Source of the DNA: a virus
Length of the DNA: 64,000 bases
IMG/VR virus record: IMGVR_UViG_3300031539_000002
Reading direction: 5' to 3' (one strand)
Position 1 is the stretch's first letter; every line of letters starts with the position of its first letter. The notes under the pieces are model-generated. The model was given only the letters and a program-made list of their open reading frames with translations. It had not been told where the DNA came from and did no database searches. The position numbers and the translations under genes are program-made. Shown here in pieces: positions 2,167-64,000 of this stretch.

Positions 2167-2472
2167 ATGTCCGATAAACCATCAGCGCGCCGGGTCGTCA
2201 TGACCAAGAAGGTGGCCCGGCAGTGGCTGCTTGCTCAGGCGAAGCCAGAGTACCGCTTTCGGGTGTTCAATCCGAACGCGAAGGATTATCCCTCGGTGCT
2301 CCGTTCTTTTCGTGACGGTAAGCTCAGACTTGCTTCCGTCGAACCCCTTCCCGACCTCGGAGTCAGTGAAGACTTCGAGGGCTTTTACGTCTGGTCCTCC
2401 GATCGCGACTCCTTGAAGACCTTGGAGCGTTGGTTCGTGAGACGCGGGCTGGAGACGAACTGGATTTGGTGA
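2167..2472 (+). CDS. Hypothetical protein with N-terminal KKVARQW tag
   Basis: ATG 2167 in frame with track ORF 2122; tight operon spacing. Confidence 0.6.
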   Translation: MSDKPSARRVVMTKKVARQWLLAQAKPEYRFRVFNPNAKDYPSVLRSFRDGKLRLASVEPLPDLGVSEDFEGFYVWSSDRDSLKTLERWFVRRGLETNWIW

Positions 2473-2473
2473 G

Positions 2474-2917
2474 ATGTCGGGTGTTCGAACGCGCATCAAG
2501 AGTTGCTTCACGTACATGGTGCGGATCAATGATCCGTGCAACCCGTCGTGGATGTTCACCATTGACGTCAACCAAGATGGCACTTGCGGCGTCAGCAGCA
2601 TCAAGTCACCCAACGGCAGCATTTGCGATTCAAACACGCAAATTCCCGGGTGCGTCCTCGACGAGATTAACGCCGCGAAGGCGGATGTGGAGAACATCTT
2701 GGCACAGTCGAGCGCAGTAAACGGAACCCTGACTTTCACTGACGAGACGACGCAGTCGATCGTCTTTGCCACGCCGTTCGCCAACACGAACTATCGCGTG
2801 TACGTGACGCTCGAGGACTTCTTCGACTGGAGGATCGTCAACAAGACCACCGTCGGCTTCGACATCGAACTCAACATCACCTACACGGGAACGGTTCAGT
2901 ACGACGTGTTCGTCTAG
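2474..2917 (+). CDS. Putative virion structural protein
   Basis: C-terminal IVFATPFANTNYRVYV...KTTVGFDI domain shared with the C-terminus of 2927-4537. Confidence 0.55.
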   Translation: MSGVRTRIKSCFTYMVRINDPCNPSWMFTIDVNQDGTCGVSSIKSPNGSICDSNTQIPGCVLDEINAAKADVENILAQSSAVNGTLTFTDETTQSIVFATPFANTNYRVYVTLEDFFDWRIVNKTTVGFDIELNITYTGTVQYDVFV

Positions 2918-2926
2918 GAGCAAGCC

Positions 2927-4537: not shown

Positions 4538-4548
4538 GAGAAGACGCC

Positions 4549-5124: not shown

Positions 5125-5168
5125 CAGGGGCGCCACTTGCGCCCGCCTCCAATCGCCTCAACGGGCGT

Positions 5169-5190
5169 GGTTTTCGCCTTATAGGCATCC
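5169..5190 (+). promoter_or_regulatory. Putative late-promoter motif
   Basis: GGTTTTCGCCTTATAGGCATCC. Confidence 0.6.
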
Positions 5191-5208
5191 CTTGACAGGA
5201 AGTTCGCT

Positions 5209-6003
5209 GTGCCCACACCCGACCCTAAACGCGTCGCCGCGACGTATCTGGCCCATCAGCAAATCAAAACTGCTGGCGAGGTCATTTTCAAGAAGGACCG
5301 GAGTGGGGATGTTGATTCGTGGGCCTACACCGATGTCCCGCCTTCGATGCGGGAGATCCCTCGAGACTTCAACTACGCGCCCAAGCATCAGAAGCCGTTG
5401 GCTCAGGTCTTGAGGTCCACGCTGGCCGCGCTCGGCTACGTGCTGATGGCCTACAACCGGTTCGCCAAGCTCAAGTCTTCCCGTCTCAGCCCCGATGGAA
5501 ACCTCGGAGGCCGTGGCTACATTCAGAAGATCCAAGACATGCGCAAGCAGTACATGAACTGTGTTGAGGCGCTGTCTGCTCTTTCCGACACGGTGCATGA
5601 CGAGATCAACGCTCCGCACTGGGCCCTCATGTCGCGTCAAGAAGATGATGAGGGGAAGAACGAAGTGTCGCAGCTCATTGAGGAAGCACAGGTCATCCGC
5701 GAGGACCCCCAAGAATGGGCCGAGCAGGAGACCGGTGAGTCGGTCGCTGACGAAGAGAACAAAGACGACGAGGAAGAAGAAGTCGTCGTGGAGGAGGGAT
5801 TCGGTGAGTCGATGGCCGGAGGTAAGGACGAGCGCACCAAGAAGAACGAGTCCAACCCCGCCGCGTGGATGAATCCTCCCGCACCCTCCGGGAACAAGAT
5901 GGCTTCCCACAAATCGGCCCGAGACATTCGCCTCGCTCTCGCAGTGGGTCGCATTGCCCAAAAGTGGGCTACCAACCAAGAGATCGAGGGAGGGCAAAAC
6001 TGA
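5209..6003 (+). CDS. Hypothetical head-associated protein
   Basis: N-terminal KRVAATY...KTA, C-terminal KMAS...GRIAQKW, acidic tract. Confidence 0.7.
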   Translation: MPTPDPKRVAATYLAHQQIKTAGEVIFKKDRSGDVDSWAYTDVPPSMREIPRDFNYAPKHQKPLAQVLRSTLAALGYVLMAYNRFAKLKSSRLSPDGNLGGRGYIQKIQDMRKQYMNCVEALSALSDTVHDEINAPHWALMSRQEDDEGKNEVSQLIEEAQVIREDPQEWAEQETGESVADEENKDDEEEEVVVEEGFGESMAGGKDERTKKNESNPAAWMNPPAPSGNKMASHKSARDIRLALAVGRIAQKWATNQEIEGGQN

Positions 6004-8746: not shown

Positions 8747-8749
8747 ACC

Positions 8750-9373: not shown

Positions 9374-9382
9374 TAGCCGAAT

Positions 9383-10084: not shown

Positions 10085-10088
10085 ACCC

Positions 10089-11993
10089 GTGGCAGGCAAA
10101 GCTTCCAGCAACCTCGCCCGGATCGCTCTCAACGCCGGGCGCCTCAAGATTGAGGGAGGCAGACGTGAAGTTGTTGACATCATCACCTTCATCGAAGCCG
10201 ACTGGGGTCTGAAGTTCAAGCTCTGGCCCGTCCAGAGAGTCATTCTCAAGGCGCACTACGGCATCGAGCTCGACGACAATCCTGCCAACAAGTTCAAGAT
10301 CACGGACTGGAAGCGGGAGAACGAGCAGTGGTTCACTGAGGCGGAGTACCTGCGGTGGAAGCACGAACGCGGCGAGTGCAACATCGCTGAGGTCGTCCCG
10401 GGGCATGAGCGTCGCAACCTGATTCTGCCCATTGGGCGCCGGTCGGGTAAGACGACGATCTCTGCGTGCATCGCTGCCTACGAGACGTACAAGCTGATCA
10501 ACAAGGGCAACCCGCAGAGCTATTACGGGCTCGCCCCTTCCAACCCGATCCGTCTCATCTCAGTTGCGACTGGCAAGGACCAGGCCGGTCTCCTCTACGA
10601 AGAGGTCAGCCACCACTTCGCCAAGTGCAACTTCTTCAAGCGCTACACAGCGAACAACACGCTGTCCTACGCGCGTTTCCAGACTCCTCACGACATCGAT
10701 GAGTTTGGCGCCTACTCGGAGAACCCCCGAGCTCGTGCAAGCGTCCGCGTCTCCTTCGCAGCTTGTAACGCCAAGAGCCTCCGCGGGTCTGGCAACGTCG
10801 TCATCATCCTCGATGAGGTTGCCCACTTCCTCGAGCAGGGCGGCAGCTCGGCCGAGGAGGTCTACACAGCGCTGTCTCCGTCAAACAAGGCGTTCACACC
10901 GAAGGATGAGTACGGAGAGAACATCTACGGAGAGGCCACTGAATCTGAGGGTCGGATCATCATGATCTCGTCGCCCCTCGGCAGGCAGGGGCTGTTCTAC
11001 GAGAAGTTCAAACAGGCGATGGGTGGCGGCGAGTCCACCACGAACATGCTCGCTGTGCAGGCGCCTACGTGGGAGGTCAACCCGACCATGTCCGCGGCGG
11101 CGTTCAAAGAGGAGTACGCCTTCGACCCCCGTAAGTTCGCGGTCGAGTTCGGGGCGGAGTTTTCCGACCGGACCCTCGGTTGGCTTGAGGACGACCAAGA
11201 CTTGTGGGCCTGCGTCGACAAGAGCCTACGAGCTCGTCATCGAGGACAACCTCGCTTGGCCTATTTCGTTGGATTCGACCTTGGTCTCGTCAACGATGCG
11301 TCTTCGATCGCCATCACGCACATCGATCCTGATGGCCGCATCATCCTCGATTACATCGGCAAGATGCAGGCCGGGGAGGGCGAGTACGCCGACTACGACC
11401 GCCTTGAGTTCGAGGACGTGGCCAACTGGATTCACCTTCTCTCGCGTCGATTCCGTTTCTACAAGGGTCTGTTCGATCAATGGGGAGCGATCCCTCTTGA
11501 GCAGGCACTCGCCAAGAAGGGGCTCACGATGCTCGAGGGCAAGCTGTTCACGGCGCCCGAGAAGAGCCAGATCTGGCAGAACTTCAAGTCGATGATGTGG
11601 GACCGCATTGGCGGCAAGCCCCGCCTCGGGTTCTACGACATCACGGACCGCGAGAAGCAGGAGTACATCCGGCGCGAAGAGAAGCCTCCTGAGCACCTTG
11701 AGTACCTTGAGGAGCTGCGGTCTCTCCAAGCCACCTTCAAGAGCAAGTACATCATCCACGTCGAAGCCCCGCAGTCGGATGGGAAACACGACGACATGGC
11801 AGACGCCTTGGCGCGTTCGATCTACTTGGCGAGTCAGCATCTCGGGAAGCTCAAGCACATCGCGGGTTCAAGGACGAACGCGGACCCCAATCAGCCACAA
11901 GTGTCTGCGAAGGTCCGTCGTTTGAACCATCGGAAACGTCTCGCCGGGGGCTCCGATCCAAAGCGGATGGTCCCCAGGAAGCGGAGGCGATAG
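10089..11993 (+). CDS. terL: Terminase large subunit
   Basis: Walker A GRRSGKT, Walker B IILDEVAH, coupling motif ISSP, RNase-H-like GFDLG and HDDMADA. Confidence 0.92.
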   Translation: MAGKASSNLARIALNAGRLKIEGGRREVVDIITFIEADWGLKFKLWPVQRVILKAHYGIELDDNPANKFKITDWKRENEQWFTEAEYLRWKHERGECNIAEVVPGHERRNLILPIGRRSGKTTISACIAAYETYKLINKGNPQSYYGLAPSNPIRLISVATGKDQAGLLYEEVSHHFAKCNFFKRYTANNTLSYARFQTPHDIDEFGAYSENPRARASVRVSFAACNAKSLRGSGNVVIILDEVAHFLEQGGSSAEEVYTALSPSNKAFTPKDEYGENIYGEATESEGRIIMISSPLGRQGLFYEKFKQAMGGGESTTNMLAVQAPTWEVNPTMSAAAFKEEYAFDPRKFAVEFGAEFSDRTLGWLEDDQDLWACVDKSLRARHRGQPRLAYFVGFDLGLVNDASSIAITHIDPDGRIILDYIGKMQAGEGEYADYDRLEFEDVANWIHLLSRRFRFYKGLFDQWGAIPLEQALAKKGLTMLEGKLFTAPEKSQIWQNFKSMMWDRIGGKPRLGFYDITDREKQEYIRREEKPPEHLEYLEELRSLQATFKSKYIIHVEAPQSDGKHDDMADALARSIYLASQHLGKLKHIAGSRTNADPNQPQVSAKVRRLNHRKRLAGGSDPKRMVPRKRRR

Positions 11994-11996
11994 CCG

Positions 11997-12772: not shown

Positions 12773-14758
12773 ATGCCAGCGGAAGGATCAGGTAAAGCAA
12801 TCGCCGGACCAGCGTCAACGACGGTTCGGACAAACGAGGGCGCACGCGTCGTGGCTGAGGTGCCGAACCATCGGACTCAGGTTCGCATTGGCAAGCCGTC
12901 CCGGGTGGTCGTTGGATCGATGCGCTCGCAAAACAAGTCGAGCTTCCGAGCAAGGGTGGCCGCTTCTTGCGGCCCCGGCAGCGGTGGCTTTGGCGGGACC
13001 GGTGGCGCATACGGCGGTGGCGGTGGCGGTGGTGGTGGCGGCGGGTTCGGAGGCAACGGGGGTGGTGGCGCAGTTGCCCAAGCATCCGCGGGCAACTTCT
13101 ATTCGCCCGAGCTGTCGACGGACTTCCTTGAGCTTCCGCAGTCTCTCAACGAGCAGTGGAACTACTACCGATTCTTCTACAACAACGAGCCGTTCGTCGG
13201 GCAGGCCCTTGACCTGCACACTGAGCTGCCGTTGTCGAAGGTCCGCCTTGCTCGCCCCAAGGCCAAAAGCAAGGCGCTTGCAGACCGGGCACTCCGTTTC
13301 TGCGAGAAGTGGGTCGAGGGCATCGGACTGCTGCAACGGCTGCTGGAGATCGTCCACGACTACTTCCTCATCGGGGAGGTCTACATCTTCTGCGAGGATG
13401 CCAACCCCGACATGCCTCGGGAGGTTCGGCAGAAGGTCGTCCGTCGCGTGGAGCACGACGGCACTCTCACAGAGCAGTGGATCGACCGCGAAGAGGCCGA
13501 TGACCTCGCTGTTGAATGGCTCAAGCAGAACTACAAGGGGCTCACGAACGTCCGCATCCTACCTCCTGAGCAGGTGCACATCCAGACGTTCCCGTTCACG
13601 GATGAAGTGATCATCGAGCTTATCCCTGACTCCAAGACGAAGCACGTCCTCGAGATGGCTGAGCAGGGGGACCGCAACGCACAACGCGTGGCAGATTCTA
13701 TGGACCCTGTGGTCATCGAGGCTCTTCGTCGCGGTGACAACATCCCGCTGTCCACGGACCCTGATGGGGGCTCGTTCGTCCACTACATGGCGAACAAGAA
13801 GTCGCAGTACGAGCCGCGCGGCCACAGCATCCTCCAGCGATGCCTCCGTACGCTCGTGTACTTCGACAAACTCCGTCAGGCGCAGACGAGTATCGCTTCG
13901 CGCCACATGACTCCTGTGCGTCTCGTCTACGCCGAGGACATGAGCGAGGCCGACACGGAGAACCTGCGCGACCAGATTGACCTCGCGCTCCAAGACCCCG
14001 ACTACTCGATCGTCACGAACTTCCAGGTCACCTGGGAGGAGATGAACTCAAACGGCCGTCTCCTTGAGCTCACGGGAGAGTACGACCTCATCAGCCGTCA
14101 GCTCTACGCGGGCCTTGGTGTGACTGAGACGTTGCTCAACGGTGAGTCGAGCTACTCGGGTGACCGCATCAACCTCGAGGTCATCAACACGCGCTACATG
14201 CTGCTTCGTGAAAACGTGCAGCGCCTCGTCGAGCAGTACTTCTTCAAGCCGATGTGTCGACGCATGGGCTTCGTGGAGGAGGACGAGGACGGCGAGATGG
14301 TGGTCATCTACCCGAAGCTGAGCTTCACCAGGCTCGCGCTCCGGGACAATCAGGACACCTTCGATGCCCTGTTCCAGCTCTACCAGAAGGGCAGCCTGGA
14401 CATCGAGACGATCCTCGACCTGCTCAACATCGACCCGGTCATGGTCAAGGAGCGCCTCGAGCGAGACTTCGCCACGTTCAACGATGCGCAGTTCAACGAA
14501 GTCCTTCGTTCGGTCTACGGCCGGTCGGGCGACCAACTCGCCGAGAACTCCAACATCGTCAACAAGATCGCGGAACAGCTCGGGCTCGAGTACAGCAAGC
14601 CCGAAGAGCCTGGCATGGGCCGATTCGCGTCCCTCAAGACCGCATCAGAGGGGGGTCTCCAAATTGGTGACGACATGGTTTCCAAGATCGCTGATGCAGT
14701 GGTCGAACGGCTCATGGGGACGCGGAAGGCGCCCGGAGAGCCCTCTGACGAGTCTTAG
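12773..14758 (+). CDS. Portal protein
   Basis: Downstream of TerL; EPFVGQALD, YFLIGEVYIF, RILPPEQV, PRGHSILQRC, LGVTETLL patterns typical of portals; Gly-rich N-terminal extension. Confidence 0.8.
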   Translation: MPAEGSGKAIAGPASTTVRTNEGARVVAEVPNHRTQVRIGKPSRVVVGSMRSQNKSSFRARVAASCGPGSGGFGGTGGAYGGGGGGGGGGGFGGNGGGGAVAQASAGNFYSPELSTDFLELPQSLNEQWNYYRFFYNNEPFVGQALDLHTELPLSKVRLARPKAKSKALADRALRFCEKWVEGIGLLQRLLEIVHDYFLIGEVYIFCEDANPDMPREVRQKVVRRVEHDGTLTEQWIDREEADDLAVEWLKQNYKGLTNVRILPPEQVHIQTFPFTDEVIIELIPDSKTKHVLEMAEQGDRNAQRVADSMDPVVIEALRRGDNIPLSTDPDGGSFVHYMANKKSQYEPRGHSILQRCLRTLVYFDKLRQAQTSIASRHMTPVRLVYAEDMSEADTENLRDQIDLALQDPDYSIVTNFQVTWEEMNSNGRLLELTGEYDLISRQLYAGLGVTETLLNGESSYSGDRINLEVINTRYMLLRENVQRLVEQYFFKPMCRRMGFVEEDEDGEMVVIYPKLSFTRLALRDNQDTFDALFQLYQKGSLDIETILDLLNIDPVMVKERLERDFATFNDAQFNEVLRSVYGRSGDQLAENSNIVNKIAEQLGLEYSKPEEPGMGRFASLKTASEGGLQIGDDMVSKIADAVVERLMGTRKAPGEPSDES

Positions 14759-14759: not shown

Positions 14760-14781
14760 GGTTTTCGGTCTATCGCGGCCC
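14760..14781 (+). promoter_or_regulatory. Putative late-promoter motif
   Basis: GGTTTTCGGTCTATCGCGGCCC. Confidence 0.6.
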
Positions 14782-14799: not shown

Positions 14800-16923
14800 G
14801 TGCCCCAGCCTGCGCCACAGAACTTCACGAAAATCGCTAACCGCGTCGTCCAGAGATGGATGCGGCGAAGTGTGCGTGTGGCCAAAGCGACGGGGACCAA
14901 GACCGGCCAAGGCGAATCGGTCGGGCTGTTCATCCCGCTCCCGAAGGACCTGGCCAAGCAGTTCCCAGACTTGGGGAAGAACGACTCTTCCCCCTCTCAT
15001 GTCACCTTCCTCTACATCGGGGATTTCAAGGACAAGGAGCAGCAAGAAAAACTCGTCGAGGTCCTCCGCGAGACGATGCGGAAGTGGTGGCCCGGAGCCA
15101 AGGCCACCCTCAATGGCCTTGAGTACTTCGACCACCACGACAAGGACCGTCGTGTCCCCCACGTCGCCGTCGATTTCGACAAGGACCTGAGCGGGTTCAA
15201 ACACCGCGTCAAGCAGGAACTCAGCGACGAAGGCATCGAGGTCGGTGACAAGTTCCCTGAGTTCAAGCCTCACGTCACCCTCTCGTACATGCCCGGCATG
15301 GACTCGGAGTGGGAAGGGGAGGTGCCCGAAGGGTCCTGGAACTTCGATGAGATGGAGGTCTGGGGGCTCCCCGAGCTCCACACCATCAAACTCGGACCCT
15401 CGGAGAAGAAGGTCGCCGCATCCTGGCTCCGAGGCAAGGTGGCCGGCTGGTGGGCCATCTCCCCCGGCAACCCAGGGATCAACCCGCCTCCCGTGGACAA
15501 GGGCGGCCTACTGAATGCACTCCCTGGCACAGACCCCGATAGCGCCCGCTACAACGGAGACGGGCCGGCTGACATCATGGGCAATGCGCTCGCTGCCGTG
15601 AACCAGGAGTATATTGACGCGTGGAAGCGTCCTGCGACTCCCGAGGAGATGCAGGCAGTCTTCGACTTCGTCTACGGAGGATTCGAGCGAGCACCCGAGC
15701 ACTACCTCCCCAAAGGCGATTCTGTCAGCCTCCGGGTAGCGGCTCGTTACATGCAGTCTTCCGTCCATCGCAAAAACATCTCCCTCATGAAGTGGCTCTC
15801 GCAACTGACCCGTCGATTGGGGGTTGGCCGGGACACGTACGTCGTGGGTGGTGCTGTGCGGAACTTTTTGATCGATCAGCCGATCAAGGACATCGACATT
15901 GTCATCGATACCACGAAGGCTGGCCGTGACTCTGACTGGCTCGCCAAGCAGATCGCTCGCAACATCCCAGCTCCCACGAACGTCACCACGAATCAATATG
16001 GCGTCGCCATCCTGACCGTGAAGGGGACGTGGATGATCGGAGGGGACGACCTCAACGGCGAAGTCCTTGAGATCGCCAACGCTCGCAAGGAAAGCTATGG
16101 GGGCCAGGGCGGCAAGGGCTACAAGCCTCACGCAGTCGCCCCTGCCACAATCGATGAGGACGTGCTTCGACGCGAGTTCACGTTCAACACGCTGCTATGG
16201 CGCATGATGGACTTGGCCCATGGTCCTGACAAAGCCGAGATCATCGACCTCACTGGCTGCGGTCGTCGTGACCTCGATCAGCGTGTGGTTCGTTGTCCGC
16301 AAGACCCCGACAAGGTGTTTTCGGATGACCCGACTCGGATGCTCCGGGCCATCAAGTTCACCGGCAAGTACGGCTTCAAGATTCCTCCCGATGTGGTGCG
16401 CTCCATCAAGCGCAACGTCTCCAAGCTCAAGCGCATGCCGTGGGAGGCTGTGGCGTCGATTCTCGTGAACGACGTGATGAGTCAGCCGACTGCTCGCAAG
16501 TCTCTCAAGCAGATGAAGGACCTTGGGTTGCTCGACACTGTGTCGGAGATGATCCAGGAGCAGAAGCCGTTCGCCACGTACATGAGCAACCAGCTCCGTC
16601 GCAACCGCAAGGTCCAGTTCTTGCTCGACCTCCTCGAGCTGGGCGTCCCCGCATCGACGCCGATCTCGTTTCTCGACCGCGCAGGCCAGCAGCGGTTGCG
16701 AGACCTGACTGTTTCGATGCCTGAGAAGGAGGCCGTCGCCTTCGTCGAGAATCTCATCAAGCCTCCTGTGGACAACAAGCGCATCATCGACGTGCTCAAG
16801 TTGGAGGGCCCCGATCGCCGTCACATCACCCCGACTGCTCGGCATCTGATCCTGCAAAATCCCGAGCTCGCGTCCAAGGGACAGCATCTCACTGACGCTG
16901 TCATCAAGGGATTGAGGAAGTGA
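14800..16923 (+). CDS. 2H phosphoesterase fused to CCA-adding/poly(A)-polymerase-type nucleotidyltransferase
   Basis: Two HxT motifs (HVTF, HVTL); class II NTase motifs VGGAVRN...DIDI, RREFTFN, DDPTRMLRAIKF. Confidence 0.85.
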   Translation: MPQPAPQNFTKIANRVVQRWMRRSVRVAKATGTKTGQGESVGLFIPLPKDLAKQFPDLGKNDSSPSHVTFLYIGDFKDKEQQEKLVEVLRETMRKWWPGAKATLNGLEYFDHHDKDRRVPHVAVDFDKDLSGFKHRVKQELSDEGIEVGDKFPEFKPHVTLSYMPGMDSEWEGEVPEGSWNFDEMEVWGLPELHTIKLGPSEKKVAASWLRGKVAGWWAISPGNPGINPPPVDKGGLLNALPGTDPDSARYNGDGPADIMGNALAAVNQEYIDAWKRPATPEEMQAVFDFVYGGFERAPEHYLPKGDSVSLRVAARYMQSSVHRKNISLMKWLSQLTRRLGVGRDTYVVGGAVRNFLIDQPIKDIDIVIDTTKAGRDSDWLAKQIARNIPAPTNVTTNQYGVAILTVKGTWMIGGDDLNGEVLEIANARKESYGGQGGKGYKPHAVAPATIDEDVLRREFTFNTLLWRMMDLAHGPDKAEIIDLTGCGRRDLDQRVVRCPQDPDKVFSDDPTRMLRAIKFTGKYGFKIPPDVVRSIKRNVSKLKRMPWEAVASILVNDVMSQPTARKSLKQMKDLGLLDTVSEMIQEQKPFATYMSNQLRRNRKVQFLLDLLELGVPASTPISFLDRAGQQRLRDLTVSMPEKEAVAFVENLIKPPVDNKRIIDVLKLEGPDRRHITPTARHLILQNPELASKGQHLTDAVIKGLRK

Positions 16924-19900
16924 ACGCTCTCGTCGCACGCGTGGCTGCACGCCACATGGCTGCTCAGGATGATTTCTCCGTGGGCGACGAGGTGCTGTTT
17001 GGCAAGTACAAGAACAAGCGCGGCAAGATCGTGCGTCTGTTTGAGGATGAACGCGGCATCCCATCCGTCGAGATTGAGCCCATCCCCAAGGGTCGCAAAC
17101 AGAACCGTGTGATCGGCCTCTACAAGATCTGGAAGGGCGACCATCGCAAGCAGGCCGCGTACTCCAAGGAGTTTTTGGAGTTCGTTCAGGGACGCCGTTT
17201 CCAAAACCCCGACACCGGCAACCAAGTCTTGTTCCAGAGCCTTGAGGTTCCTGAGCAGGTCAAGATTTACCAGCAGTGGGGTGCCGCACAGAACGCCCAA
17301 GAAGAGAAGCCTGAGGGCCGAGAGCGCCACGAGCCCGGAAGGCTCCCGCCTGCGTGGAACCGTGACTCGGACATGGCACGTAAGGTAGAGAAACTCGCGG
17401 AAGAGTACGCGACGGAGTACGAGGATTTCTTTGACGGAATGCGACAAGTGTCCGTGGAGGACGAGCGCTATCGAGGGGCCGAATTCGCGGGCGAGGCGGT
17501 TATGCTCCGCGAGTGGGACCGTCACATCCCTGGGTACGTGCGGTTGCCCCCCTCTTCCACTTTGGAGGCTATGAGCGACGAAGATCGGCGCATCGCGCTG
17601 ACTTCATGGGACGCCGGTGTCAAGTTCATGGACGAGGTGCTTGGGGATGGTGAACGTCTTTCCCTTTTAGAGACCATGAAGCCTTCGGGAGAAGGAGGGT
17701 CGCTGGGGTCCCCCGGAGAAGGCTGGATCGACTCGACCCACAGCCCTGGAGCCCAACGTCTGCAAGGAGCTCTCCGAGAGTTGGGTATCGAGACACACCT
17801 GCCGTCTCGAGGCATCGAAGACCATGCAAAATGGCGTGACGAAGGGGCATCGAACGACCTACTCAAGAGTGCGTTGACGAAGGCGATGGCATGGCAACGC
17901 GCCTACTTCGCTGCGATGGGTGTTGAGGATGTGATGCTTTTCCGGGGAGCCAGTCTCGGTGACGAGGTGGCACGTCAACAGGAGCCCCACCCAACCGACA
18001 AACAGCAGAAATATCTTCCTCAAGGGATTCCGGTCACGTTGCAGAGTCGCCAGGAACTCTCGAGTTTCACGATGGACCCTTACGTTGCCTACAACTTCAC
18101 TCATCGAAATCGGAGTCCGGGAGAGAGTGACGAGAGCTACGAGAGTCGGGCGGGGAATTCCCTTCGCGGAGCAGTGGCGTACCGGGTTCCTGTTGACCGG
18201 ATTGTTTTGTCCCCAGCCGCAATCCCACAGCTCGGGCCTGCAACTCCGAAAATCAAGGAGGGCTACCGAGAGGTCGAGTTCATTGTGGGGGGCATTGGGG
18301 AACTTGAAGGGCGCACGCTGCCTTCACTGGATGCGGGATACGGAGCGGGCCGGTACGACCCCGAGAAGATGAAGCTCGCGACCAAGATCACCATCGAGAT
18401 GTCCGACGAAGACGAGGATGCGTGGCATAAGAGCGTGCGACGCGAGAACAAGGGCGACCGCCGCAAACAGGCCGCGTACTCCAAGGAGTTTTTGGACTCT
18501 GTGCAGGGGCAGCGGTTCCGCAACCCCGACACAGGCAACAAGGTCGTTTTCAAGTCGCTCTCCGAAGCAGAGCAACGGAAGATCCACGAGCGATGGGAGG
18601 CCCGTCATCGTAGCCAAGACGCGTCGGGGCCCACGGTGACAGAGCGCGGCCGTACCTTCGAGACAGGCAAGCCCGTTGCGTTTGAGTTCCTCCGCAACAC
18701 TGAGAAGGCTCCCAAGGCCCCTTCGGATTCGGACCCGTACCAGCAGAAGATCGAGCCCGCAGGGTTCTATGTGACCCACAAGGACACGGACGGGGACCCA
18801 CTCCCGGGCTACGACACGGGCACCATCAGTTTTCAGAACCCGCTCGTGCTCGCGGTCAACACCAACCCTGATGGCCCGATCTACGACGAGAACTCTTGGA
18901 AGGCGCAACTCGAGCGTCAGTACGGCAAGCGTGGAAAGGCCCTCACCAAGGCCCTCCAAGCTGACGGATACGACGGCATCGTGACCGTCACCCAAGTTCG
19001 TGGAAAGCCCTACACGTCCGAGATTGTTGTGCTCGACTCCGAAAAGTCTGTGCAGAAGGGCGACGACCGTAAGCGCAGGGCACAAGAGATCGCGGGCATG
19101 GGGTACGAGGCGGCGGCGCAGCTCGACAACGATGAACTTGATAGTGTGGCGTTTGGCGTGAAGCAGGGGGTCCAAGACCTTCGCATCGACCAGCTCAAGG
19201 TCAAGTACGACGCGGATCTTGAGCAGGCTGAGCATGCGGTGTCTCGAGAGCCCGACCGCTGGAAGGAACACCTTGATGAGCCTATTGAGGTCCGTTTCAA
19301 GGATGGGGAGTTCCACATCGAGGACGGCCACCATCGGTACGTGACGGCCCAGCGCATGGGCCGCGACAGCGTGAAGGTGGACCTGACTATCGATGACAAC
19401 CCTGTGAAGAAGATCTTTGAAATGGCCGGCAAGAAAATGGCTTCCTTCCATCGTGAAGCGTGCATCATCGCCGGCCGTCGGTTCGGAGACAGTCTGTGTC
19501 TCATCAAGAACCGCGACCGTGCCTACGACGCAGAGCTCGAGATCGTGCACCTGGAGAAGGACGGCACCGAGATGGCTGTCATCCTCGATACCGTGACCGG
19601 GTACATGGAGGGCGTCAACGAGCACGGGATCGCGGTCGTCAACACAACTCTGATGGTTGTGCGCGACGAAGCCGAGGGCAAGAAGAAGTCCCCCAACGGA
19701 GACAAGGGCAAGAAGCCCCTCACGTCCAAGGACGGCCCCAAGATCTACCGCGCCCTGGCGTGTGACAACATTGAGGATGCCCTTGAGTCCTTGCGCACGG
19801 ACGACAACGGTATTCGGGGCCATACCTTCGTGGCCGACGGCAACAAGTTGTTCTCCATTGAGTGCAGCAAGACGCACCCAGCTCGCGTAACGGAACTCGA

Positions 19901-45415: not shown

Positions 45416-45437
45416 GGTTCTGAGCCTATAGGAGGCC
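45416..45437 (+). promoter_or_regulatory. Putative late-promoter motif
   Basis: GGTTCTGAGCCTATAGGAGGCC; start codon follows 14 nt after CTAT. Confidence 0.6.
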
Positions 45438-54424: not shown

Positions 54425-54430
54425 GCTCGT

Positions 54431-54452: not shown

Positions 54453-54458
54453 CTGAGC

Positions 54459-55187: not shown

Positions 55188-55210
55188 GTAGAATACCGGG
55201 AGACCGGTAC

Positions 55211-56392: not shown

Positions 56393-56425
56393 ATATGGGC
56401 TAACTCACCCTAAAAGGATAGAACG

Positions 56426-57459: not shown

Positions 57460-57467
57460 CCTTCACT

Positions 57468-58097: not shown

Positions 58098-58205
58098 TAC
58101 CCTCGAGGTGGGTATGGTCCTGAGGTCGCGCCCTCCGTGGTGCCGCGGCTGCTGAATCTGACAGACCCCTTTTCCGCCCTGCGATGCAGGGGAGGCGATT
58201 CAGTG

Positions 58206-58892: not shown

Positions 58893-58906
58893 ACGCCTCA
58901 GGTCTT

Positions 58907-58929
58907 GGTTTTTCGTTCTATCGAGGTCC
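58907..58929 (+). promoter_or_regulatory. Putative late-promoter motif (variant)
   Basis: GGTTTTTCGTTCTATCGAGGTCC. Confidence 0.55.
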
Positions 58930-58947
58930 ATAGGTGGGACGCCCCTC

Positions 58948-60489
58948 ATGGCTCAGCTTCGATCTGCAACCGACCAGAACCTCGTGCGCCTTTTGCGGGC
59001 CCGCGCGGAAGGTGACACTGCGTTTCGTGAATCTCTTGCGCGCGAGATTCAAGCTGAGCCGAAGTACCAAGAGTACATCCAGCGCAAGCGCCAGGAAGGC
59101 GCCTCGCAATGGCTTTCCGAAGAGGATTGGGAGGCATACGTCTTTGGCAAGGAGCCCGCGAACGAAGCTCCTGCTGAGCAGCCTGTTGAACAGGCTCCGA
59201 CTCAAGAGCAGTCCGAGGAGCAGCGGCCAAGCGAAAAAGCCGACCCAGATGCGAAGGAGGAGAAGCGAAGCGACCGTTTGATGGGTCGGGTTAAACAGTT
59301 CATCAAAAACCGGCGTCGGCAGCGTGGGAAGAAGTTCTGGGAGGCTACCCAAACGACGGGGTCGATGCCCAAGCGGTTGTTCCCGACCCGGGAGACGCGG
59401 CACCTTCCGAAGTGGGCCGCGCAAACGAGCAACAACCCTGAGCGCATCATGGCGCAAGCTCAAGAGTCACAGTCGTTGATGATTGATTGGCTCAACCGAG
59501 GCCGCGGCATCGACAAGGCTATCGGCGCCACGACCGTGCGTCGTGATGAAGACCCGAAAGCTGAGATCGACCTTTCGCAGAAGGGTCCTGTTCTTGTGAT
59601 TGGACCTCCCAAGACGAAGAAGGCGATGGAGGACAAGGTCCGGGAGCGGTACTCGCCGCGAGGAGTGCCGAATTGGAGCGAGGGAGCTGTGGACCTCATC
59701 CGTGCTTCGATCGCTGTGGATCGTTACGATGACTTGGCTGGCGTCGTGGACAAGCTCAAGGAAAGCGGCATCGAACTCGTATCGAAACCCCGAAATCGGT
59801 TTCGCCAGGCCACCGCTTCGGGGTATCGAGATGTTGTGCTCAACGCCCGACTTCCCAACGGCCACATCATGGAGCTTCAACTCCATGTGAAGCCGATGAT
59901 CAAGGCCAAAGACAAGACCCATGGTCTCTACCAAGAGATTCGAGGGCTCGACACGAAGGACAAGGACGAGCTCAACGAGGAGCAGCAAGCTTTGCTCGAC
60001 CGGGTTGCAGCGGTGCAGCGGGCTTCTTTCGATGCCGCTTGGGAGATGTCTTTGGAGGGGGTAGAGCCTGAGTCCATCTTCGATGCTCCTCTCTTCTCGG
60101 AGTCCAAGAAACCCAAGAAGCCCAAGCGACGCAAAAGAGCGGGAGAAGAAGAGGGAGAAGAGACGCTTTACTTTGACGTGGACGGCCTCCCTGTGTCGTG
60201 GGACCGCCCCAAGATCCCGAAGATCCACGGTGGCGGGGAGCCCCGCAAAGTCCAAGATCTCGCTTGGTTCATGGAGCGCGCCGTTCCTATTGCGAAGGAC
60301 GAGTTTGAGATCTTGGTCAACGCCCGCAAAGAGACGCCTCCGAAGGGTAAAGACGACAAGAGCGAGAAGAGCGAGAAGGCGGCGCGAGACCTGCATCTTC
60401 TAGCGGCCATGCGACGCCGTGCCGCAACCGATCCCGAGTTCCGAAGCGCGCTCCAGAAGGCGATGCGGGCACGGAAAGAGAACCCCTGA
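58948..60489 (+). CDS. RelA/SpoT-like nucleotidyltransferase (small alarmone synthetase-like) with tag motifs
   Basis: K..K, DLIRASI, SGYRD, ELQLH, HGLY. Confidence 0.8.
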   Translation: MAQLRSATDQNLVRLLRARAEGDTAFRESLAREIQAEPKYQEYIQRKRQEGASQWLSEEDWEAYVFGKEPANEAPAEQPVEQAPTQEQSEEQRPSEKADPDAKEEKRSDRLMGRVKQFIKNRRRQRGKKFWEATQTTGSMPKRLFPTRETRHLPKWAAQTSNNPERIMAQAQESQSLMIDWLNRGRGIDKAIGATTVRRDEDPKAEIDLSQKGPVLVIGPPKTKKAMEDKVRERYSPRGVPNWSEGAVDLIRASIAVDRYDDLAGVVDKLKESGIELVSKPRNRFRQATASGYRDVVLNARLPNGHIMELQLHVKPMIKAKDKTHGLYQEIRGLDTKDKDELNEEQQALLDRVAAVQRASFDAAWEMSLEGVEPESIFDAPLFSESKKPKKPKRRKRAGEEEGEETLYFDVDGLPVSWDRPKIPKIHGGGEPRKVQDLAWFMERAVPIAKDEFEILVNARKETPPKGKDDKSEKSEKAARDLHLLAAMRRRAATDPEFRSALQKAMRARKENP

Positions 60490-63400
60490 TGGCGGATTTC
60501 GAGTGGCAGAGTTTCTTCCTTGATGTGACGCCCGAGCCCCCGCGCTCGAAGGTGGCGCTGTCTATTTTCGATGCGCCAGATTCAGTGGAATCTGAGCCTC
60601 CTGAGAAGAAGAAAGAGCCCAAGCCCAAAGCTGAGGAGCCCAAGGCAGAGTCCAAACCGGAGGCGCCTGCGAGCATCTTTGAGACTCCGTCTGCGGAGCC
60701 GGCAGCCCCTGCCGAAGAGAAGCCTAAGGAGACGCCCGAAGAAGGGGGCCAACCTTACAGCCCTCCTGCGGGCGCACAGGACTCCGGTAAGTGGGAGGAG
60801 TTTCTCAACCTGTTTTACGAGGGCGGTAAAAAGAAGGTCAAGAACCCGAACGCGGAAACGAAGGACAAGTATCCCGAGGTTCAGCTAAGCACGGCACTCA
60901 AAGACCAAATGTTCGCCCATGGGATTCAGCAAGAGTTCCATGCGTGGCTACAGCAGGGCAAAGAAGACGATCCCGCGTCCGATGCCCCTGCGGTTGAAGA
61001 GAAGCCGAAGTCCGAGCAGAAAAAGAAGCCCAAAGTCGGCACGAAGGTCGAGAGCTTGGACCAGGTTGTCCCAGGCATGTTCATTGAGAACGCATGGGGG
61101 ACGGTCGGCAAGGTCACCTCGATGCTGCCCGATGGCGGTTTTCGCTATCGGCAGTTCGACAAGATCACAAACAAGTGGAAGGGCACGACTAAGATCGACA
61201 AGGCGAAGGCCGAGCAGTACTTCTCAGGGCAGTCGTTTACCGTCACTGAGGATCCGGCCCAAGACATCCCGAAGGGCTCCACGACGGTTCACGGCACTGA
61301 TGTCACGCCAGGGGATACCGTCTGGTTCAACGGTGACCCCCGCAAGGTCAAGAAGGTTGAGGAGGACCCGAACAAGCACGGCTACCGGTATCAGCTAGAG
61401 GACGGCACTTGGGTCAACATGCACGACGTGGAGGGGCCCAAGATGGAGTCCCCACACTCGTACGTCTACCACCAGCCCGGTGATCCCGAACCGGAGCCAG
61501 AGCCCTCGGCCGAAACCCCTAAGCCCAAGAAGAAGGAGAAGGTTGACGTTGGCGATAAGGTTGAGACCTCTTCGCAGCTCACCGAAGGGGATTGGCTTGA
61601 GAGCTTCGACGCCGATGACCCGAGTGAAAAGTATCTCGGCAAGGTCACTGAGGTGGTTGAGGGGGGTCCCTTCGGAGAGAAGGGGGAGTATGGCCCTGGG
61701 GTCATGATCCAAGACTACAGCGCCGTGACCGGGAAGATGTCGGGCAAGCCTTGGTTCCTTTCAGATGAGAAGTTGCCAGAAGGGGACACGACGAAGGTCA
61801 AGCCTCCGAAGGTCAAGAAGGGACTGACGGGCAAAGAGGTCACTGACTCCAAGAAGCTCCAAGAAGGCGACGTTCTTCGTATCCATGAGTACGACGGTGG
61901 CAAGACGTACACGGCCCAGGTCATCAAGAACGATGACGGCTGGATCGTTTACAACATCGTGAACCCCAAGACCGGAAAGGTCTCGGATACTCGCACGGTC
62001 TCACCGCAGACGTTTGCGGACGAGCTCCAGGTTGCACGTTTGCCTGCGTCGAAGGTCCCCAAGAAGCTCAAGCCGATGTCGAAGACGAACGATGACGGCT
62101 CCGTCAACCCGTTCGCGCTCGTCATGGAGCAGCACGCCGAGAAGGAGCTGGCCAAGGCGAAGGCCAAGAGCAAGGAGCAGACCGAAGACCTTCAAGAGGA
62201 CGCGGACCCTCCGGCTGCTGCGCCCAAAAAGGACAAGCCCAAAGGCAAGACCAAGAAGGTCGACAAGGGCAAGTGGAAGCTCCAGACGGAGCAAGTCGGT
62301 TGGGACGACATCAAAGTCGGTGACATGGTCCACACGGCGGACTACGGGCCGCAGCGCGTCGTGGGCCATACGGGAAGCGGCGTACGCCTTGAGAGTGGCG
62401 TTGTCCTTACGAAGAGCCAGCTCAAAAAAGACAAGGGTCAGTTCACCGTTTCCCGAGGAGACAAGCCACAGAAGGCTAAGGCACCTCCGATTCCCGAACG
62501 TCCGCAAGGGAAACTCGTCTCGAAGGCGGATACTGTTCAAGAGGGCGATGTCATCGAGTACGAGCACAACGGCACCACCTACCGTGGTGAGGTTGTCTCG
62601 TGGGACACCCTTGGAGAGAAGTTCCGCGTTCGCATCATCTATCCGCCTGAATACGTCGCCAAGTACGAGACCTACGACGAGGCGACGGGTGAGAAGAAGT
62701 TCAAGACCCCTTCGTTCGACCAAGCCAAGATTGACAAGCGCAAGCCTCGAATCCTCTCGAAGGATGAGATGAAGGCGTACGACGCCAAGGTCAAGGGGTA
62801 CACGCAGAAGATCAAGGACATCGACAAGCAGTATTCCGAAGATGTGGCGGAGTACGAGGCCGCGATGTCGGGTCAGGAAACGGTCACCACGGGGCCGCTT
62901 CAGCACCTTGAACCCCCCAAGGATTGGAACCACGACAGCACCATTGCGCATGACGCTGACCGATTCTTTGAGCAGTACAAGGCGATGCTTGGAGATAAGA
63001 TCGAGTCCATTGTGGGCGGGATGTCCTCGGGCAAGTCCTACTGGTCGGGGACATCTGCCATGTGGGACGAGATGTCCGAAGGAGAGCGTAAGCTCGCGCA
63101 GTCGGCCCACGATGCGGCACCTGAGTTCAGGAAGCTGTTGACTACGGAGGAATGGAGTGCGTGGCAAAGCGCGCTCTCAACTTGGCAGGGCTCGAGCGGA
63201 GGCTCGACCGCACATACGCTGATGGGTGGCCTTGAAAACCTCGGGGTCGAGGGAGGCCCCAAGTATTTTGAGTCCTCAAACGTGCAGCATTACCGGGAAG
63301 AGGGGCGCAAGAACGAGGCGCTCCATCGCGCGATCTCCAAGGCGATGGCGTACAGCCAGCTCGTCTACGACGCTCTTGGCGTGAAGGACGTATCCCTCTA

Positions 63401-64000
63401 CCGCGGTACCAAGACCAAACCGGTTCAAGGGGCCGAGCAGGGCAAGAAGATCACGACTACCACTGCGCGTGAACTTGCATCCTTCTCGATCGATCCTCAA
63501 GTCGCTTACAGTTTTGCGGGCGGAGACAAGCGAGTCGTCAGATATCGCGTGCCTGTTTCTCGCCTGTTCATTTCGCCTATCACGTTCGCCCCGCTTTCTT
63601 CGGCGAAGTCGCCGCACAGCGAGAACGAGTACGTCGTTGCCGGCCAGGATGGCATGGAGGGCAAGGTGATGCCCCAGAGCCTGTCCTCGTTCAGTTCGTC
63701 GAAGATGAAACTCGCAGCCTACGAGCGCCGCCCCTTGTTTGGGCCTGTCCTTGATGATGAGGCGTTGATCATCGAGTTTGAGCCTGAGGATGATGCGTGG
63801 CTGCGGGCGCCGGTCAAAGAGACCTGGTGGCCCAGCTACTGCAACCAGTACGATCAGTGGGCTGAGGAGTACGAGCCTCGAGTCGCCTCCAAGATCCTTC
63901 GATTGGCTCGTCAGCACTCGGGGTTCCGACGTGAACTCCTTGCGGTCCTGCATCCCGTCAAGAAGGCCACGACGGTTTTCGACGCTCCCGACACCAAGAT
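60489..64000 (+). CDS. Giant multidomain protein, partial (SH3/KOW-like repeats + ADP-ribosyltransferase); missing from ORF track
   Basis: TGATG coupling at 60489; by manual translation the frame stays open to the window end; several (V/L)xxGDx(V/L) barrels; LYRG, SFS, ENEYVV. Confidence 0.8.
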   Translation, partial: MADFEWQSFFLDVTPEPPRSKVALSIFDAPDSVESEPPEKKKEPKPKAEEPKAESKPEAPASIFETPSAEPAAPAEEKPKETPEEGGQPYSPPAGAQDSGKWEEFLNLFYEGGKKKVKNPNAETKDKYPEVQLSTALKDQMFAHGIQQEFHAWLQQGKEDDPASDAPAVEEKPKSEQKKKPKVGTKVESLDQVVPGMFIENAWGTVGKVTSMLPDGGFRYRQFDKITNKWKGTTKIDKAKAEQYFSGQSFTVTEDPAQDIPKGSTTVHGTDVTPGDTVWFNGDPRKVKKVEEDPNKHGYRYQLEDGTWVNMHDVEGPKMESPHSYVYHQPGDPEPEPEPSAETPKPKKKEKVDVGDKVETSSQLTEGDWLESFDADDPSEKYLGKVTEVVEGGPFGEKGEYGPGVMIQDYSAVTGKMSGKPWFLSDEKLPEGDTTKVKPPKVKKGLTGKEVTDSKKLQEGDVLRIHEYDGGKTYTAQVIKNDDGWIVYNIVNPKTGKVSDTRTVSPQTFADELQVARLPASKVPKKLKPMSKTNDDGSVNPFALVMEQHAEKELAKAKAKSKEQTEDLQEDADPPAAAPKKDKPKGKTKKVDKGKWKLQTEQVGWDDIKVGDMVHTADYGPQRVVGHTGSGVRLESGVVLTKSQLKKDKGQFTVSRGDKPQKAKAPPIPERPQGKLVSKADTVQEGDVIEYEHNGTTYRGEVVSWDTLGEKFRVRIIYPPEYVAKYETYDEATGEKKFKTPSFDQAKIDKRKPRILSKDEMKAYDAKVKGYTQKIKDIDKQYSEDVAEYEAAMSGQETVTTGPLQHLEPPKDWNHDSTIAHDADRFFEQYKAMLGDKIESIVGGMSSGKSYWSGTSAMWDEMSEGERKLAQSAHDAAPEFRKLLTTEEWSAWQSALSTWQGSSGGSTAHTLMGGLENLGVEGGPKYFESSNVQHYREEGRKNEALHRAISKAMAYSQLVYDALGVKDVSLYRGTKTKPVQGAEQGKKITTTTARELASFSIDPQVAYSFAGGDKRVVRYRVPVSRLFISPITFAPLSSAKSPHSENEYVVAGQDGMEGKVMPQSLSSFSSSKMKLAAYERRPLFGPVLDDEALIIEFEPEDDAWLRAPVKETWWPSYCNQYDQWAEEYEPRVASKILRLARQHSGFRRELLAVLHPVKKATTVFDAPDTK

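Follow-up and report, generated by a model that had tools for sequence, protein, structure and literature searches.

Shared peptide modules on otherwise unrelated effector-type proteins of an uncultured huge phage: candidate labels for virion incorporation

Foreign proteins fused to the capsid targeting sequence (CTS) of phage T4 are packaged, and sequences of this type are N-terminal, are followed by a prohead-protease cleavage site and are removed on maturation. Loading of the phage P1 Dar proteins into the head relies on helper proteins, and we know of no shared peptide for this process. The internal proteins of T4 are diverse, defence-countering proteins, which have only the prohead-directing CTS in common (PMC3012670). 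Polyvalent proteins are giant and multi-enzymatic, are encoded together with portal and terminase genes and have been predicted to be packaged in the capsid and injected (Iyer, Burroughs, Anand, de Souza and Aravind, 2017, PMC5512222). In the searched text of that article, P1 DdrB is described as processed before packaging, and term searches for shared linker or address peptides found no mention of them (PMC5512222). Finally, the cargo-loading peptides of encapsulins are short and terminal and direct diverse enzymes into an HK97-fold shell, which also encapsulates heterologous fusions (PMC11866011, PMC8346489).

Here, we analysed a window of 64,000 nucleotides from an uncultured huge phage, comprising the head-gene region and an adjoining effector cluster; the analysis covered 103 kb of the contig, whose 99 proteins were used for the counts in this genome. 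The phage and its relatives carry the same few peptide modules, hereafter tags, and one promoter-like DNA motif on otherwise unrelated effector-type enzymes, and literature searches found no published description of these tags. All features listed below are on the plus strand. The terminase large subunit (10089..11993; phrog_2, E 2.8e-21) and the portal protein (12956..14758; phrog_16240, E 8.7e-31) are untagged. They are followed by the prohead maturation protease (28822..30330; phrog_18299, E 1.2e-11) and the 291-aa HK97-type major capsid protein (32673..33548; phrog_2522 major head protein, E 4e-50), whose relatives are annotated as HK97 family. Between the latter two lies an acidic 481-aa protein, g30362 (30362..31807), for which a family match was not found and which is a scaffold candidate by position and composition. 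The tagged proteins, or carriers, fall into two groups by position. Some, namely g14800, g16920 and g28197, are encoded between the gene for the portal and those for protease, scaffold-like protein and capsid, which is the place given by Iyer et al. (2017) for polyvalent proteins with predicted capsid packaging (PMC5512222), and the others lie behind the promoter-like motif of that block.

The locus resembles the T4 IPI-III proteins in that one short peptide is common to otherwise unrelated proteins of one phage. In all-against-all BLAST, similarity among g45444, g5209, g2167, g28197 and g14800 was confined to the tags, and for the eight tag B proteins of the 485-kb phage LR745208.1 no BLAST similarity beyond the tag was found. 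The first-pass annotation had described all carriers as unrelated, which holds for these five, but not for g16920, g60489, g66104 and g75207, which share paralogous domains. In contrast to the CTS, several tag types are present here, which are N-terminal in many carriers but C-terminal or internal, including interdomain, in others, and one of them is a folded domain of 45 residues. g16920 and g14800 fit the polyvalent proteins as far as these are described in the searched text (PMC5512222), as both are multi-enzyme proteins with a number of effector-type domains within the range of two to fifteen per polypeptide and are encoded among virion genes, with terminase, portal, protease and capsid genes flanking them. 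The likeness to encapsulins is one of putative mechanism only, namely terminal peptides on varied enzymes next to an HK97-fold shell protein; whereas an encapsulin is a cellular compartment, the portal, terminase and protease genes mark a tailed phage, and the presence of portal and terminase therefore argues against an encapsulin compartment. As with P1 Dar and the MuF-type portal-adjacent fusions, large anti-defence enzymes would be built into heads, which is putative here, and no match to the MuF or Dar families was found among the PHROG and Pfam matches of the phage proteins.

Tag A, (R/K)VAxx(aromatic)(L/M), forms a helix of some 10 residues. Among the small carriers, it is found in g2167 (2167..2472; 101 aa, a candidate effector-like protein) as KKVARQW at nt 2209-2229, with the counterparts SVARQWL in G003, a close relative of 230 kb, and SVAGRWL in LR745208.1. 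In g5209 (5209..6003; 264 aa), KRVAATY at nt 5230-5250 (residue 8) belongs to an N-terminus that is identical in G003 and precedes a segment that appears SH3-like by eye; the fold predicted for tag A together with this segment had too low a confidence to be interpreted (pLDDT 49). An internal copy, SRVAQAF at nt 28563-28583, is present in g28197 (28197..28820; 207 aa, with a Cys-rich C-terminus), directly 5' of the protease gene, and is retained in G003 and LR745208.1. The stand-alone carrier g45444 (45444..46706; 420 aa) begins with tags A and B (45447-45521), followed by tag C. g14800 (14800..16923; 707 aa) combines a 2H phosphoesterase with a poly(A) polymerase/CCA-type nucleotidyltransferase and is predicted to be an RNA-repair type enzyme; its tag A copies (nt 14839, A-like, 15409, 15436 and 15733) occupy the N-terminal end and the stretch separating its two enzyme domains. 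The 3125-aa polyvalent protein g16920 (16920..26297), in which Pfam recognises an Ntn-hydrolase-like domain (residues 890-1048), DUF5661 (1159-1201), topoisomerase IB (1232-1424) and, weakly, GNAT (1722-1766), has copies at nt 16938, 20316 (A-like), 22551, 22602 and 26172. g60489 (60489..64000; 1872 aa, continuing beyond the window end) is a fusion of two units, each paralogous to g66104, with tags A and B at the unit junction (63876-63950). Besides g16920, the set includes giant proteins that have an ADP-ribosyltransferase-like region.

All tag strings quoted in the first-pass annotation were present at or beside the positions given there. Across the contig proteome, the pattern [KR]VA..[YWFH] occurs 17 times against 2.25 expected, and none of 1000 within-protein shuffles reached 17. 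Since the motifs were defined from this genome, out-of-sample counts are the better test, and these gave 20 against 5.6 in G003, at orthologous positions, and 24 against 10 in LR745208.1. About five of the 17 strict matches are probably background, namely those in an SbcD-like protein, g11997, the capsid protein core, g35862 and g72420; the internal RVARVY string of the capsid protein belongs to its conserved core and is probably not a tag. In agreement with the earlier remark that tags had not been noticed in the ordinary accessory enzymes, neither tag C nor a conserved tag A was found in the upstream replication and recombination enzymes, where the only strict match to tag A, that of the SbcD-like protein, looks like background. 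In G003, the 147-230 kb block has 5.7 tag A copies per 10,000 residues, compared with 1.25 in the rest of the genome. That tags sit at protein ends or between domains could be upheld in part: numerous tag A copies are interdomain within the giant proteins, but the terminal excess is marginal (11 of 37 copies no more than 20 residues from a terminus, 6.8 expected, p 0.06).

Tag C is found at 17172-17279, 18489-18596 and 22671-22778 in g16920 and at 45537-45644 in g45444. It had been taken for a short peptide, but the AlphaFold model of g45444, with two helices followed by a helix, a beta hairpin and a helix (pLDDT 90-96 over tag C), predicts that it is a folded, apparently uncatalogued minidomain of some 45 residues, built from a helix, a hairpin and a second helix. 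We counted 5 copies in the contig proteome and likewise 5 in G003, at orthologous positions, against 0 expected in each case. The copies are 44-67% identical at the DNA level with many synonymous differences, which points to selection on the peptide. In metagenomes, the family comprises 382 cluster representatives (E ≤ 1e-3), with as many as 6 copies in one protein. In 90 of 133 proteins, the first copy begins within 65 residues of the N-terminus. Its fusion partners include pentapeptide repeats, topoisomerase IB, PI3/4-kinase-like and RNA-repair HAD/2H domains as well as RNase T, RelA/SpoT, peptidase M91, GNAT and SprT, and a tag A-like motif lies upstream of 29% of the copies, as opposed to 6.6% of control windows. 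NCBIfam gave no match for g45444, and Foldseek returned nothing for tag C at E ≤ 0.001. Tag C was not found in LR745208.1 or Tunturi_5. As LR745208.1 has the same head module as the phage studied here, with a capsid protein 91% identical, tag C is not required for that head, and an obligatory role in loading it is ruled out.

Tag B, a helix-turn-helix spanning some 25 residues, was best defined in LR745208.1, where eight proteins share a near-identical 25-residue copy, located at residues 7-9 in seven of them, with codons that vary synonymously among carriers. The case for tag B in the present genome (45447-45521, 58981-59049, 60391-60465 and 63876-63950) is weak, as judged from sequence: these copies did not match the canonical tag B profile (E > 3), and they are supported by a pairwise match with E 0.007 and by [PD][ED]FR..L, observed 3 times against 0.1 expected. 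By BLAST, neither tag B nor tag C was detected in cultured phages within a collection of 50,697 records.

Tags D, E and F are lineage-restricted. Tag D is present at 21900-21980 in g16920 and at 59065-59148 in g58948 (58948..60489; 513 aa), which also contains B-like helices at 58981-59049 and 60391-60465 and tag E at 60073-60090; further tag E copies start at 60561, 60672 and 63972 in g60489. Tag F (W.EFL..FY.GGKK.V.NPN..T..KYPEV; 60792-60881 in g60489) is a further module, beyond those listed in the first-pass annotation. Tags D and E were found only in this phage and its closest relative, with 2 copies of tag D against 0 expected and 7 of tag E against 0.07 in the contig proteome, and the L035 orthologue of g60489 retains tag E. 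Both tags are set in paralogous or low-complexity contexts and need not serve as addresses. The proposed excess over background is borne out for tags A, C, D and E, whose observed counts were reached in none of the 1000 shuffles.

The promoter-like motif, GGTTTTCG-NN-CTATCG, has five copies in the window, each of which precedes a tagged gene or operon by 28-44 nt (first base of the motif to start codon). The 5 sites compare with 0.70 expected, a number reached in 0 of 100 shuffles, and the association of the motif with tagged genes has a hypergeometric p of 6e-4. The first copy, GGTTTTCGTCCTATCT (1311..1326), with the exact core TTTTCSNNCTATC, lies 44 nt before g1355, which is followed by the tag A gene g2167, and a variant (5169..5184) lies 40 nt before g5209. 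The copy at 14760..14775, 40 nt before g14800, heads a candidate g14800-g16920 cargo operon and is kept before the orthologue in G003 and L026. Another variant, GGTTCTGAGCCTATAG (45416..45431), lies 28 nt before g45444 with its tags A, B and C, and the last copy (58908..58923), 40 nt before g58948, heads the giant-protein cluster with tags B, D, E and F. Three of the five sites head the operons in which the terminase, portal, protease and capsid genes are also found, and in G003 tagged operons are headed by four of seven sites. Judging from the downstream genes, the motif-led operons are presumably of a 'late' type.

Comparison of the giant proteins with their orthologues places the indels between or at tag copies. 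In g16920, tag C marks their limits and the tagged ends of the protein are both retained; residues 129-510 are missing in L026 and residues 95-836 in G003. Similarly, residues 212-310 of g14800, which separate the second and third copies of tag A, are missing in the L026 orthologue, again with the tagged termini in place. The idea of a plug-and-play payload is in keeping with this gain and loss of enzyme cassettes between tag copies in relatives.

Based on this context, we propose that the tags are candidate virion-incorporation labels, that is, a capsid-cargo addressing system, a reading to which we give a probability of about one half. The motif-sharing late-type operons would encode effector-like proteins, namely the RNA-repair enzyme and the polyvalent, giant and small proteins, and the tags would dock these onto a component of the assembling prohead. 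Docked carriers would then be enclosed in the prohead, to be ejected afterwards along with the DNA. The polyproteins might be strings of formerly separate tagged modules, which the prohead protease could possibly cut apart. We infer each of these steps, prohead binding, packaging, cleavage and ejection.

Alternatively, the tags might be generic docking modules onto a common, hypothetical hub other than the capsid, with a role in the cytoplasm or once injected and not as a packaging address. Candidates for such a hub are a host machine, a complex made by the phage, and the SH3-like domains of the giant proteins themselves. Several tags per protein, with tag C in up to six copies, and the repeated SH3-like segments within the giant carriers would suit such a role, as would the tag B genes of LR745208.1, which are dispersed genome-wide without clustering at the head genes, and the fact that this phage has the same head module without tag C. 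However, both the genome studied here and G003 concentrate their carriers in the head-gene block and behind the same promoter-like motif, and we consider a hub outside the capsid unlikely.

It is less likely still that the tags are recognition sites of the prohead protease or structural linkers at module junctions and have no addressing role. Their position at module boundaries and indel break points could be explained in this way, as could the R/K-V-A within tag A, the K/R-x-A that usually follows the canonical tag B and the repeated KKA-H motifs in the scaffold-like proteins g27188 and g30362. On the other hand, [KR]xA is too common to be tested by counts, and a folded domain of 45 residues exceeds a cleavage site. 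Many carriers are also small, single-module proteins with a tag at the extreme N- or C-terminus, so that there is nothing to cut apart.

The hairpin of tag C, NPxTGN, recalls RNPxTG, a motif of HU-family arms. One might speculate that tag C, alone or with the A/B helices, is a small nucleic-acid-binding domain of the winged-helix or HU-arm type, which would let the effectors bind DNA or RNA, whether inside the capsid or within the host. The model, with three helices and then a beta hairpin, and the best VIA-align row, the winged-helix region of ORC (Z 5.2), point in this direction, but this Z lies under the tool's meaningful level. Moreover, no family sequence match was found for tag C, neither in Pfam, which does not cover the module in any of 96 carriers or the window proteins, nor in the PDB profile search (best E 0.37). 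Judged from the sequences shown, tag C has no marked basic character and its invariant residues are mostly hydrophobic plus E-Q, and we regard a nucleic-acid-binding role as improbable.

Chance matches or low-complexity artefacts, as might be suspected from the background-like strict tag A matches and from the Pro/Lys/Glu-rich linkers in which tag E is set, are hardly credible, and a chance origin is refuted as regards tags A, C, D and E. Against it stand the shuffles, which never reached the observed counts, the replication of tags in G003 and LR745208.1, and the tag C profile, which gives E ≤ 1e-11 for true copies and E > 0.1 for all other sequences.

Taken together, our results support the tags as real peptide modules under peptide-level selection, which are carried by effector-type proteins. 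Relative to the polyvalent proteins as presented in the searched text of Iyer et al. (2017), the tags themselves, their family-wide census and a dedicated promoter-like motif go beyond what has been described, and would be in line with a phage that may address its effectors to the virion.

Of the peptide modules shared by effector-type proteins of this virus, here termed tags A to F, tags A, C, D and E occur more often than expected by chance. All strings quoted in the first-pass annotation were found at or beside the coordinates it gave, and the motifs are indeed commoner than background: when the residues of each of the 99 predicted proteins were shuffled 1000 times, no shuffle matched the counts observed for tag A ([KR]VA..[YWFH]; 17 observed, 2.25 expected), tag C (5 and 0), tag D (2 and 0) or tag E (7 and 0.07). 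As these patterns were derived from this very genome, tests on other genomes are more telling. The 230-kb IMG/VR contig G003 is syntenic with this genome (~55-75% protein identity) and contains 20 copies of tag A versus 5.6 expected and five of tag C versus 0, and its orthologues of g5209, g14800, g16920 and g28197 (genes are named by start coordinate) carry tags at orthologous positions. The 147-230 kb block of G003 has 5.7 copies of tag A for every 10,000 residues, compared with 1.25 elsewhere (binomial p 0.0014), the latter value being close to the shuffle expectation. In the 485-kb uncultured phage LR745208.1, 24 copies of tag A were found versus 10 expected. Tags D and E are absent from both G003 and LR745208.1 and are retained in the closest relative, contig 3300037470_000856 (loci L026 and L035). 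About five of the 17 strict tag A matches are probably background, and the canonical tag B profile gave no significant match to the B-like helices of this genome.

The window sits on a viral contig of 102,757 bp with 60% G+C, in which the + strand holds nearly all genes; its sequence differs from the genome record at positions 8051 and 15154. Relatives identified through the portal are LR745208.1 (64% identity), Tunturiibacter phage Tunturi_5 and Bacillus phage G. The head-gene block, all on the + strand, starts with the terminase large subunit (10089-11993) and the portal (12956-14758), followed by the polyvalent tag carriers g14800 (14800-16923; 707 aa, 2H phosphoesterase and poly(A)-polymerase/CCA-type nucleotidyltransferase) and g16920 (16920-26297; 3125 aa, Ntn-hydrolase-like, DUF5661, topoisomerase IB and weak GNAT matches). 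Between g16920 and the prohead protease (28822-30330) lie the genes of three small proteins, and after the protease come the acidic scaffold candidate g30362 (30362-31807) and the HK97-type capsid protein (32673-33548). The protease was considered as a further bearer of the same tag, a candidate that was dropped since its C-terminal LLRIARSDVELL segment is conserved in the closest relative only. The g27188 protein (27188-28186) has an internal duplication of ~45 residues and three copies of KKAHGY(T/N)LTA, similar to KKAAHELTA in g30362; these motifs may be protease sites or scaffold repeats. The capsid protein is conserved far beyond the rest of the genome, with 98% identity to G003 and 91% to LR745208.1, for which the terminase, portal and protease values are 50%, 64% and 42%. 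A database search with it returned 2083 homologues; among the matches listed, 120 of 120 clusters were at least 90% identical, on contigs of up to 473 kb. Directly 3' of the capsid gene lies a LAGLIDADG homing endonuclease gene (33652-34626; Pfam LAGLIDADG_2, E 1.2e-21), and at 35257-42158, beside a helicase-like gene, BLAST self-matches revealed four genes with many helical repeats of ~56 residues. In G003, the portal and prohead protease genes (202254-205703 and 218132-220912) each contain a large insert that the window genes lack, and the nucleotidyltransferase gene (205745-208309) may be interrupted too. A portal-cargo fusion in G003 was rejected, as the 550 additional residues of this portal resemble an intein built around a homing-endonuclease core.

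A cluster of giant paralogues begins at 58948 and comprises g58948, g60489 (1872 aa), g66104 (1248 aa) and g75207 (1248 aa), which have a region in common with residues 110-500 of g16920; a sub-threshold match to an ADP-ribosyltransferase family was seen for one of these paralogues. No structural protein could be assigned in the g71159-g80890 cluster by PHROG and Pfam scans, and an Atlas search with g73134 returned no match. Upstream of the window, the contig encodes ribonucleotide reductase, a helicase, a UvsX-like recombinase, SbcCD-like proteins and a clamp. The proposal that tags are borne by unrelated proteins thus applies to part of the carriers, but not to the giant ones, which are paralogues of each other. 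Similarly, C-terminal and inter-domain copies were seen as described, but tag A is only marginally enriched in the 20 residues next to a terminus (p 0.06). No tags had been noticed in the ordinary accessory enzymes; the replication and recombination enzymes lack tag C and a conserved tag A, and a single strict tag A string, in an SbcD-like protein, reads as background.

Tag C is not the short peptide originally described, but a module of ~45 residues with the consensus F-x8-F-x-(N/H)-P-x-T-G-N-x-V-x-F-x-S-L-P-x2-E-Q-x6-W. A profile built from 14 copies matched 382 proteins at E <= 1e-3, 197 of them at E <= 1e-10, among 1.84 billion cluster representatives; on two phage proteomes, true copies scored E <= 1e-11 and everything else E > 0.1. 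Metagenomic carriers have up to six copies in one protein, and 90 of 133 proteins have their first copy starting within residues 1-65. In 96 carriers no Pfam family spans the module, and outside it these proteins carry pentapeptide repeats or domains of the topoisomerase IB, PI3/4-kinase-like, RNA-repair HAD and 2H, RNase T, RelA/SpoT, peptidase M91, GNAT or SprT type, or have no recognisable domain. In the 20-60 residues before tag C, metagenomic carriers usually have a tag A helix (e.g. RVAxRYL) or the canonical tag B, L-R-S-x-L-I-R-L-A-H-x-N-P-E-L-R-P-x-L-L-P-L-L; an A-like motif precedes tag C in 29% of cases versus 6.6% of control windows. Nine of the metagenomic carriers have tag A within 15 residues of the C-terminus, as do g74787 and g75207 of this contig and a 508-aa topoisomerase IB protein of LR745208.1. 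Four metagenomic proteins with three to six tag C copies (P0001, P0002, P0005 and P0009) share a C-terminal domain of ~80 residues (PPPPAQ..RMR.MGR.LM.SGM.AP.QQ...LGLRNRV) and repeat a D-W-x-F motif before every tag C. A further module, tag F (W.EFL..FY.GGKK.V.NPN..T..KYPEV), lies at 60792-60881; in the giant paralogues it comes after the tag E linkers, with more copies in g60489 (residues ~1290-1340), g66104 (residues ~107-140) and a stretch by which the L026 nucleotidyltransferase protein is extended at its N-terminus. Tag F is laid out much like tag C, yet it is missed by the tag C profile.

An AlphaFold model of residues 1-119 of g45444, a 420-aa stand-alone carrier of tags A, B and C, was obtained from a 60-row alignment and predicts tags A and B as two helices and tag C, at pLDDT 90-96, as a beta hairpin between a first helix and a long second one. 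The corresponding model for residues 1-160 of the polyvalent protein (tag A, SH3-like segment, tag C) had a pLDDT of 49 from a 4-row alignment and is unusable. A less likely alternative to addressing is that the A-B-C unit is winged-helix-like and binds nucleic acid. In searches with the model, Foldseek found no PDB match at E <= 0.001, and the best hit in VIA-align wide, to an ORC region, had a Z of 5.2, below the meaningful level. A sequence-profile search of the PDB gave no convincing relatives of tag C. Its second half (F-x-S-L-P-x2-E-Q-x6-W; e.g. 17230-17279) resembles the DNA polymerase iota ubiquitin-binding motif at E 1.1, a likeness in sequence that is probably due to chance. Tag C appears to be a new domain family that has neither a family model nor a solved structure, a conclusion that stands even if the addressing idea fails.

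Analysis of the entire LR745208.1 genome (627 genes called) revealed tag B in eight proteins versus 0.18 expected. In seven of the eight, which are 93 to 326 residues long, the tag starts at residue 7-9; beyond the tag, BLAST detected no similarity between these proteins, and the 75 nt coding for it show many synonymous differences among copies. A longer-protein search with the 93-aa protein gave two matches, the 25-residue tag being too short for that database. The tag B proteins of LR745208.1 thus follow the pattern of T4, whose internal proteins are described as diverse defence proteins with a capsid targeting sequence as their sole common feature (PMC3012670).

The five tag C copies of this contig share 39-61% protein and 44-67% DNA identity, and many identical residues are encoded by different codons, indicating conservation at the peptide level. 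Maintenance of the tags as DNA recombination joints was rejected as the main cause on the basis of this low DNA identity and the synonymous differences. Recombination between tag copies may still be a source of insertions and deletions. Residues 129-510 of g16920, the region common with the giant paralogues, are missing in L026, where the two flanking tag C copies are reduced to one, and residues 95-836 are missing in G003, with the left break where tag C begins. The versions of the polyvalent protein in g16920, L026 and G003 all retain the N-terminal tag A unit and the last 30-50 residues, a C-terminal segment that contains tag A in g16920 and L026. Likewise, residues 212-310 of g14800 are missing in L026, the gap lying exactly between two tag A copies. 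One 1387-aa protein in L038 unites topoisomerase IB with a 2H domain and with tags A and C, and g60489 consists of two g66104-like units head to tail with tags A and B at the junction. Most simply, polyvalent proteins can be read as chains of formerly independent tagged modules, which would explain why tags are found between domains. The indels between orthologues show this assembly by module joining irrespective of whether the tags are addresses.

A promoter-like motif, GGTTTTCG-NN-CTATCG, is associated with the tagged genes. The pattern GGTTYTNNNNCTATVG with at most one mismatch has five sites in the window versus 0.70 expected (five were reached in 0 of 100 shuffles), all on the + strand and intergenic. 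The sites precede g1355 (then g2167), g5209, g14800, g45444 and g58948, at a distance of 28-44 nt from the first base of the motif to the gene start; four of these five lead genes are tagged (hypergeometric p 6e-4) and the fifth is followed by a tagged gene. As three sites head the + strand gene run that also holds the terminase, portal, protease and capsid genes, we infer a promoter active at the time of morphogenesis. G003 has seven sites, six of them 29-59 nt upstream of a start codon and four heading tagged operons, one of which, at 84.9 kb, encodes a stand-alone carrier of tags A and C, and the motif also precedes tagged reading frames in two further relatives. LR745208.1 does not use the exact motif; a CTATC-type motif upstream of 5 of its 16 tagged genes versus 28 of 611 others was noticed post hoc and is a lead only. 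The link between tags and motif defines a regulon, whether or not the addressing idea holds.

We propose that the tags most likely act as virion-incorporation labels, with a probability of about one half. This reading, put forward in the first-pass annotation by analogy with T4, is favoured by where the genes lie and by the promoter-like motif they share, by the effector-type nature of the enzymes joined to the tags, by ends that are conserved while the interior varies, by the precedent of T4 and by the polyvalent-protein framework (PMC5512222). Encapsulin cargo-loading peptides provide a second working analogy, as they likewise load an HK97-fold shell (PMC11866011, PMC8346489). A complex prediction pairing the capsid protein with the A-B-C segment of g45444 (residues 1-78) gave no answer (score 0.00) and counts neither for nor against binding. 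A simple obligatory address is disfavoured, since LR745208.1 lacks tag C despite its 91% identical capsid protein and the same head module, and its tag B genes are scattered over the whole genome. The tags could instead dock effectors on a hub other than the capsid, or they could be processing sites only. Building on virion labels, we consider it a tentative and somewhat doubtful possibility that the widespread huge-phage clade with capsid proteins >90% identical uses a combinatorial address code, in which the tag A helix, the helix-turn-helix of tag B and the tag C minidomain together with a dedicated promoter would allow any enzyme cassette to be loaded and delivered with the DNA. Injected effectors would then be readable straight from sequence, and the tags could be reused for loading foreign proteins into capsids.

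Our literature searches found no description of these tags, and no family model covers them. By analogy, we rate the system as T4-like targeting on polyvalent proteins, extended by what would be a library of several tags, a new family of minidomains and a promoter-like motif dedicated to the system. Should the tags be loading labels, they would provide portable means to enclose foreign proteins in HK97-type capsids and a sequence-only listing of the proteins that a huge phage injects before its own gene expression. This set is likely rich in counter-defence enzymes (RNA repair, ADP-ribosylation, topoisomerase, DNA mimics), and such injected proteins are very hard to spot in uncultured phages. 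The T4 targeting-sequence principle would thereby be widened to a large and environmentally common phage clade.
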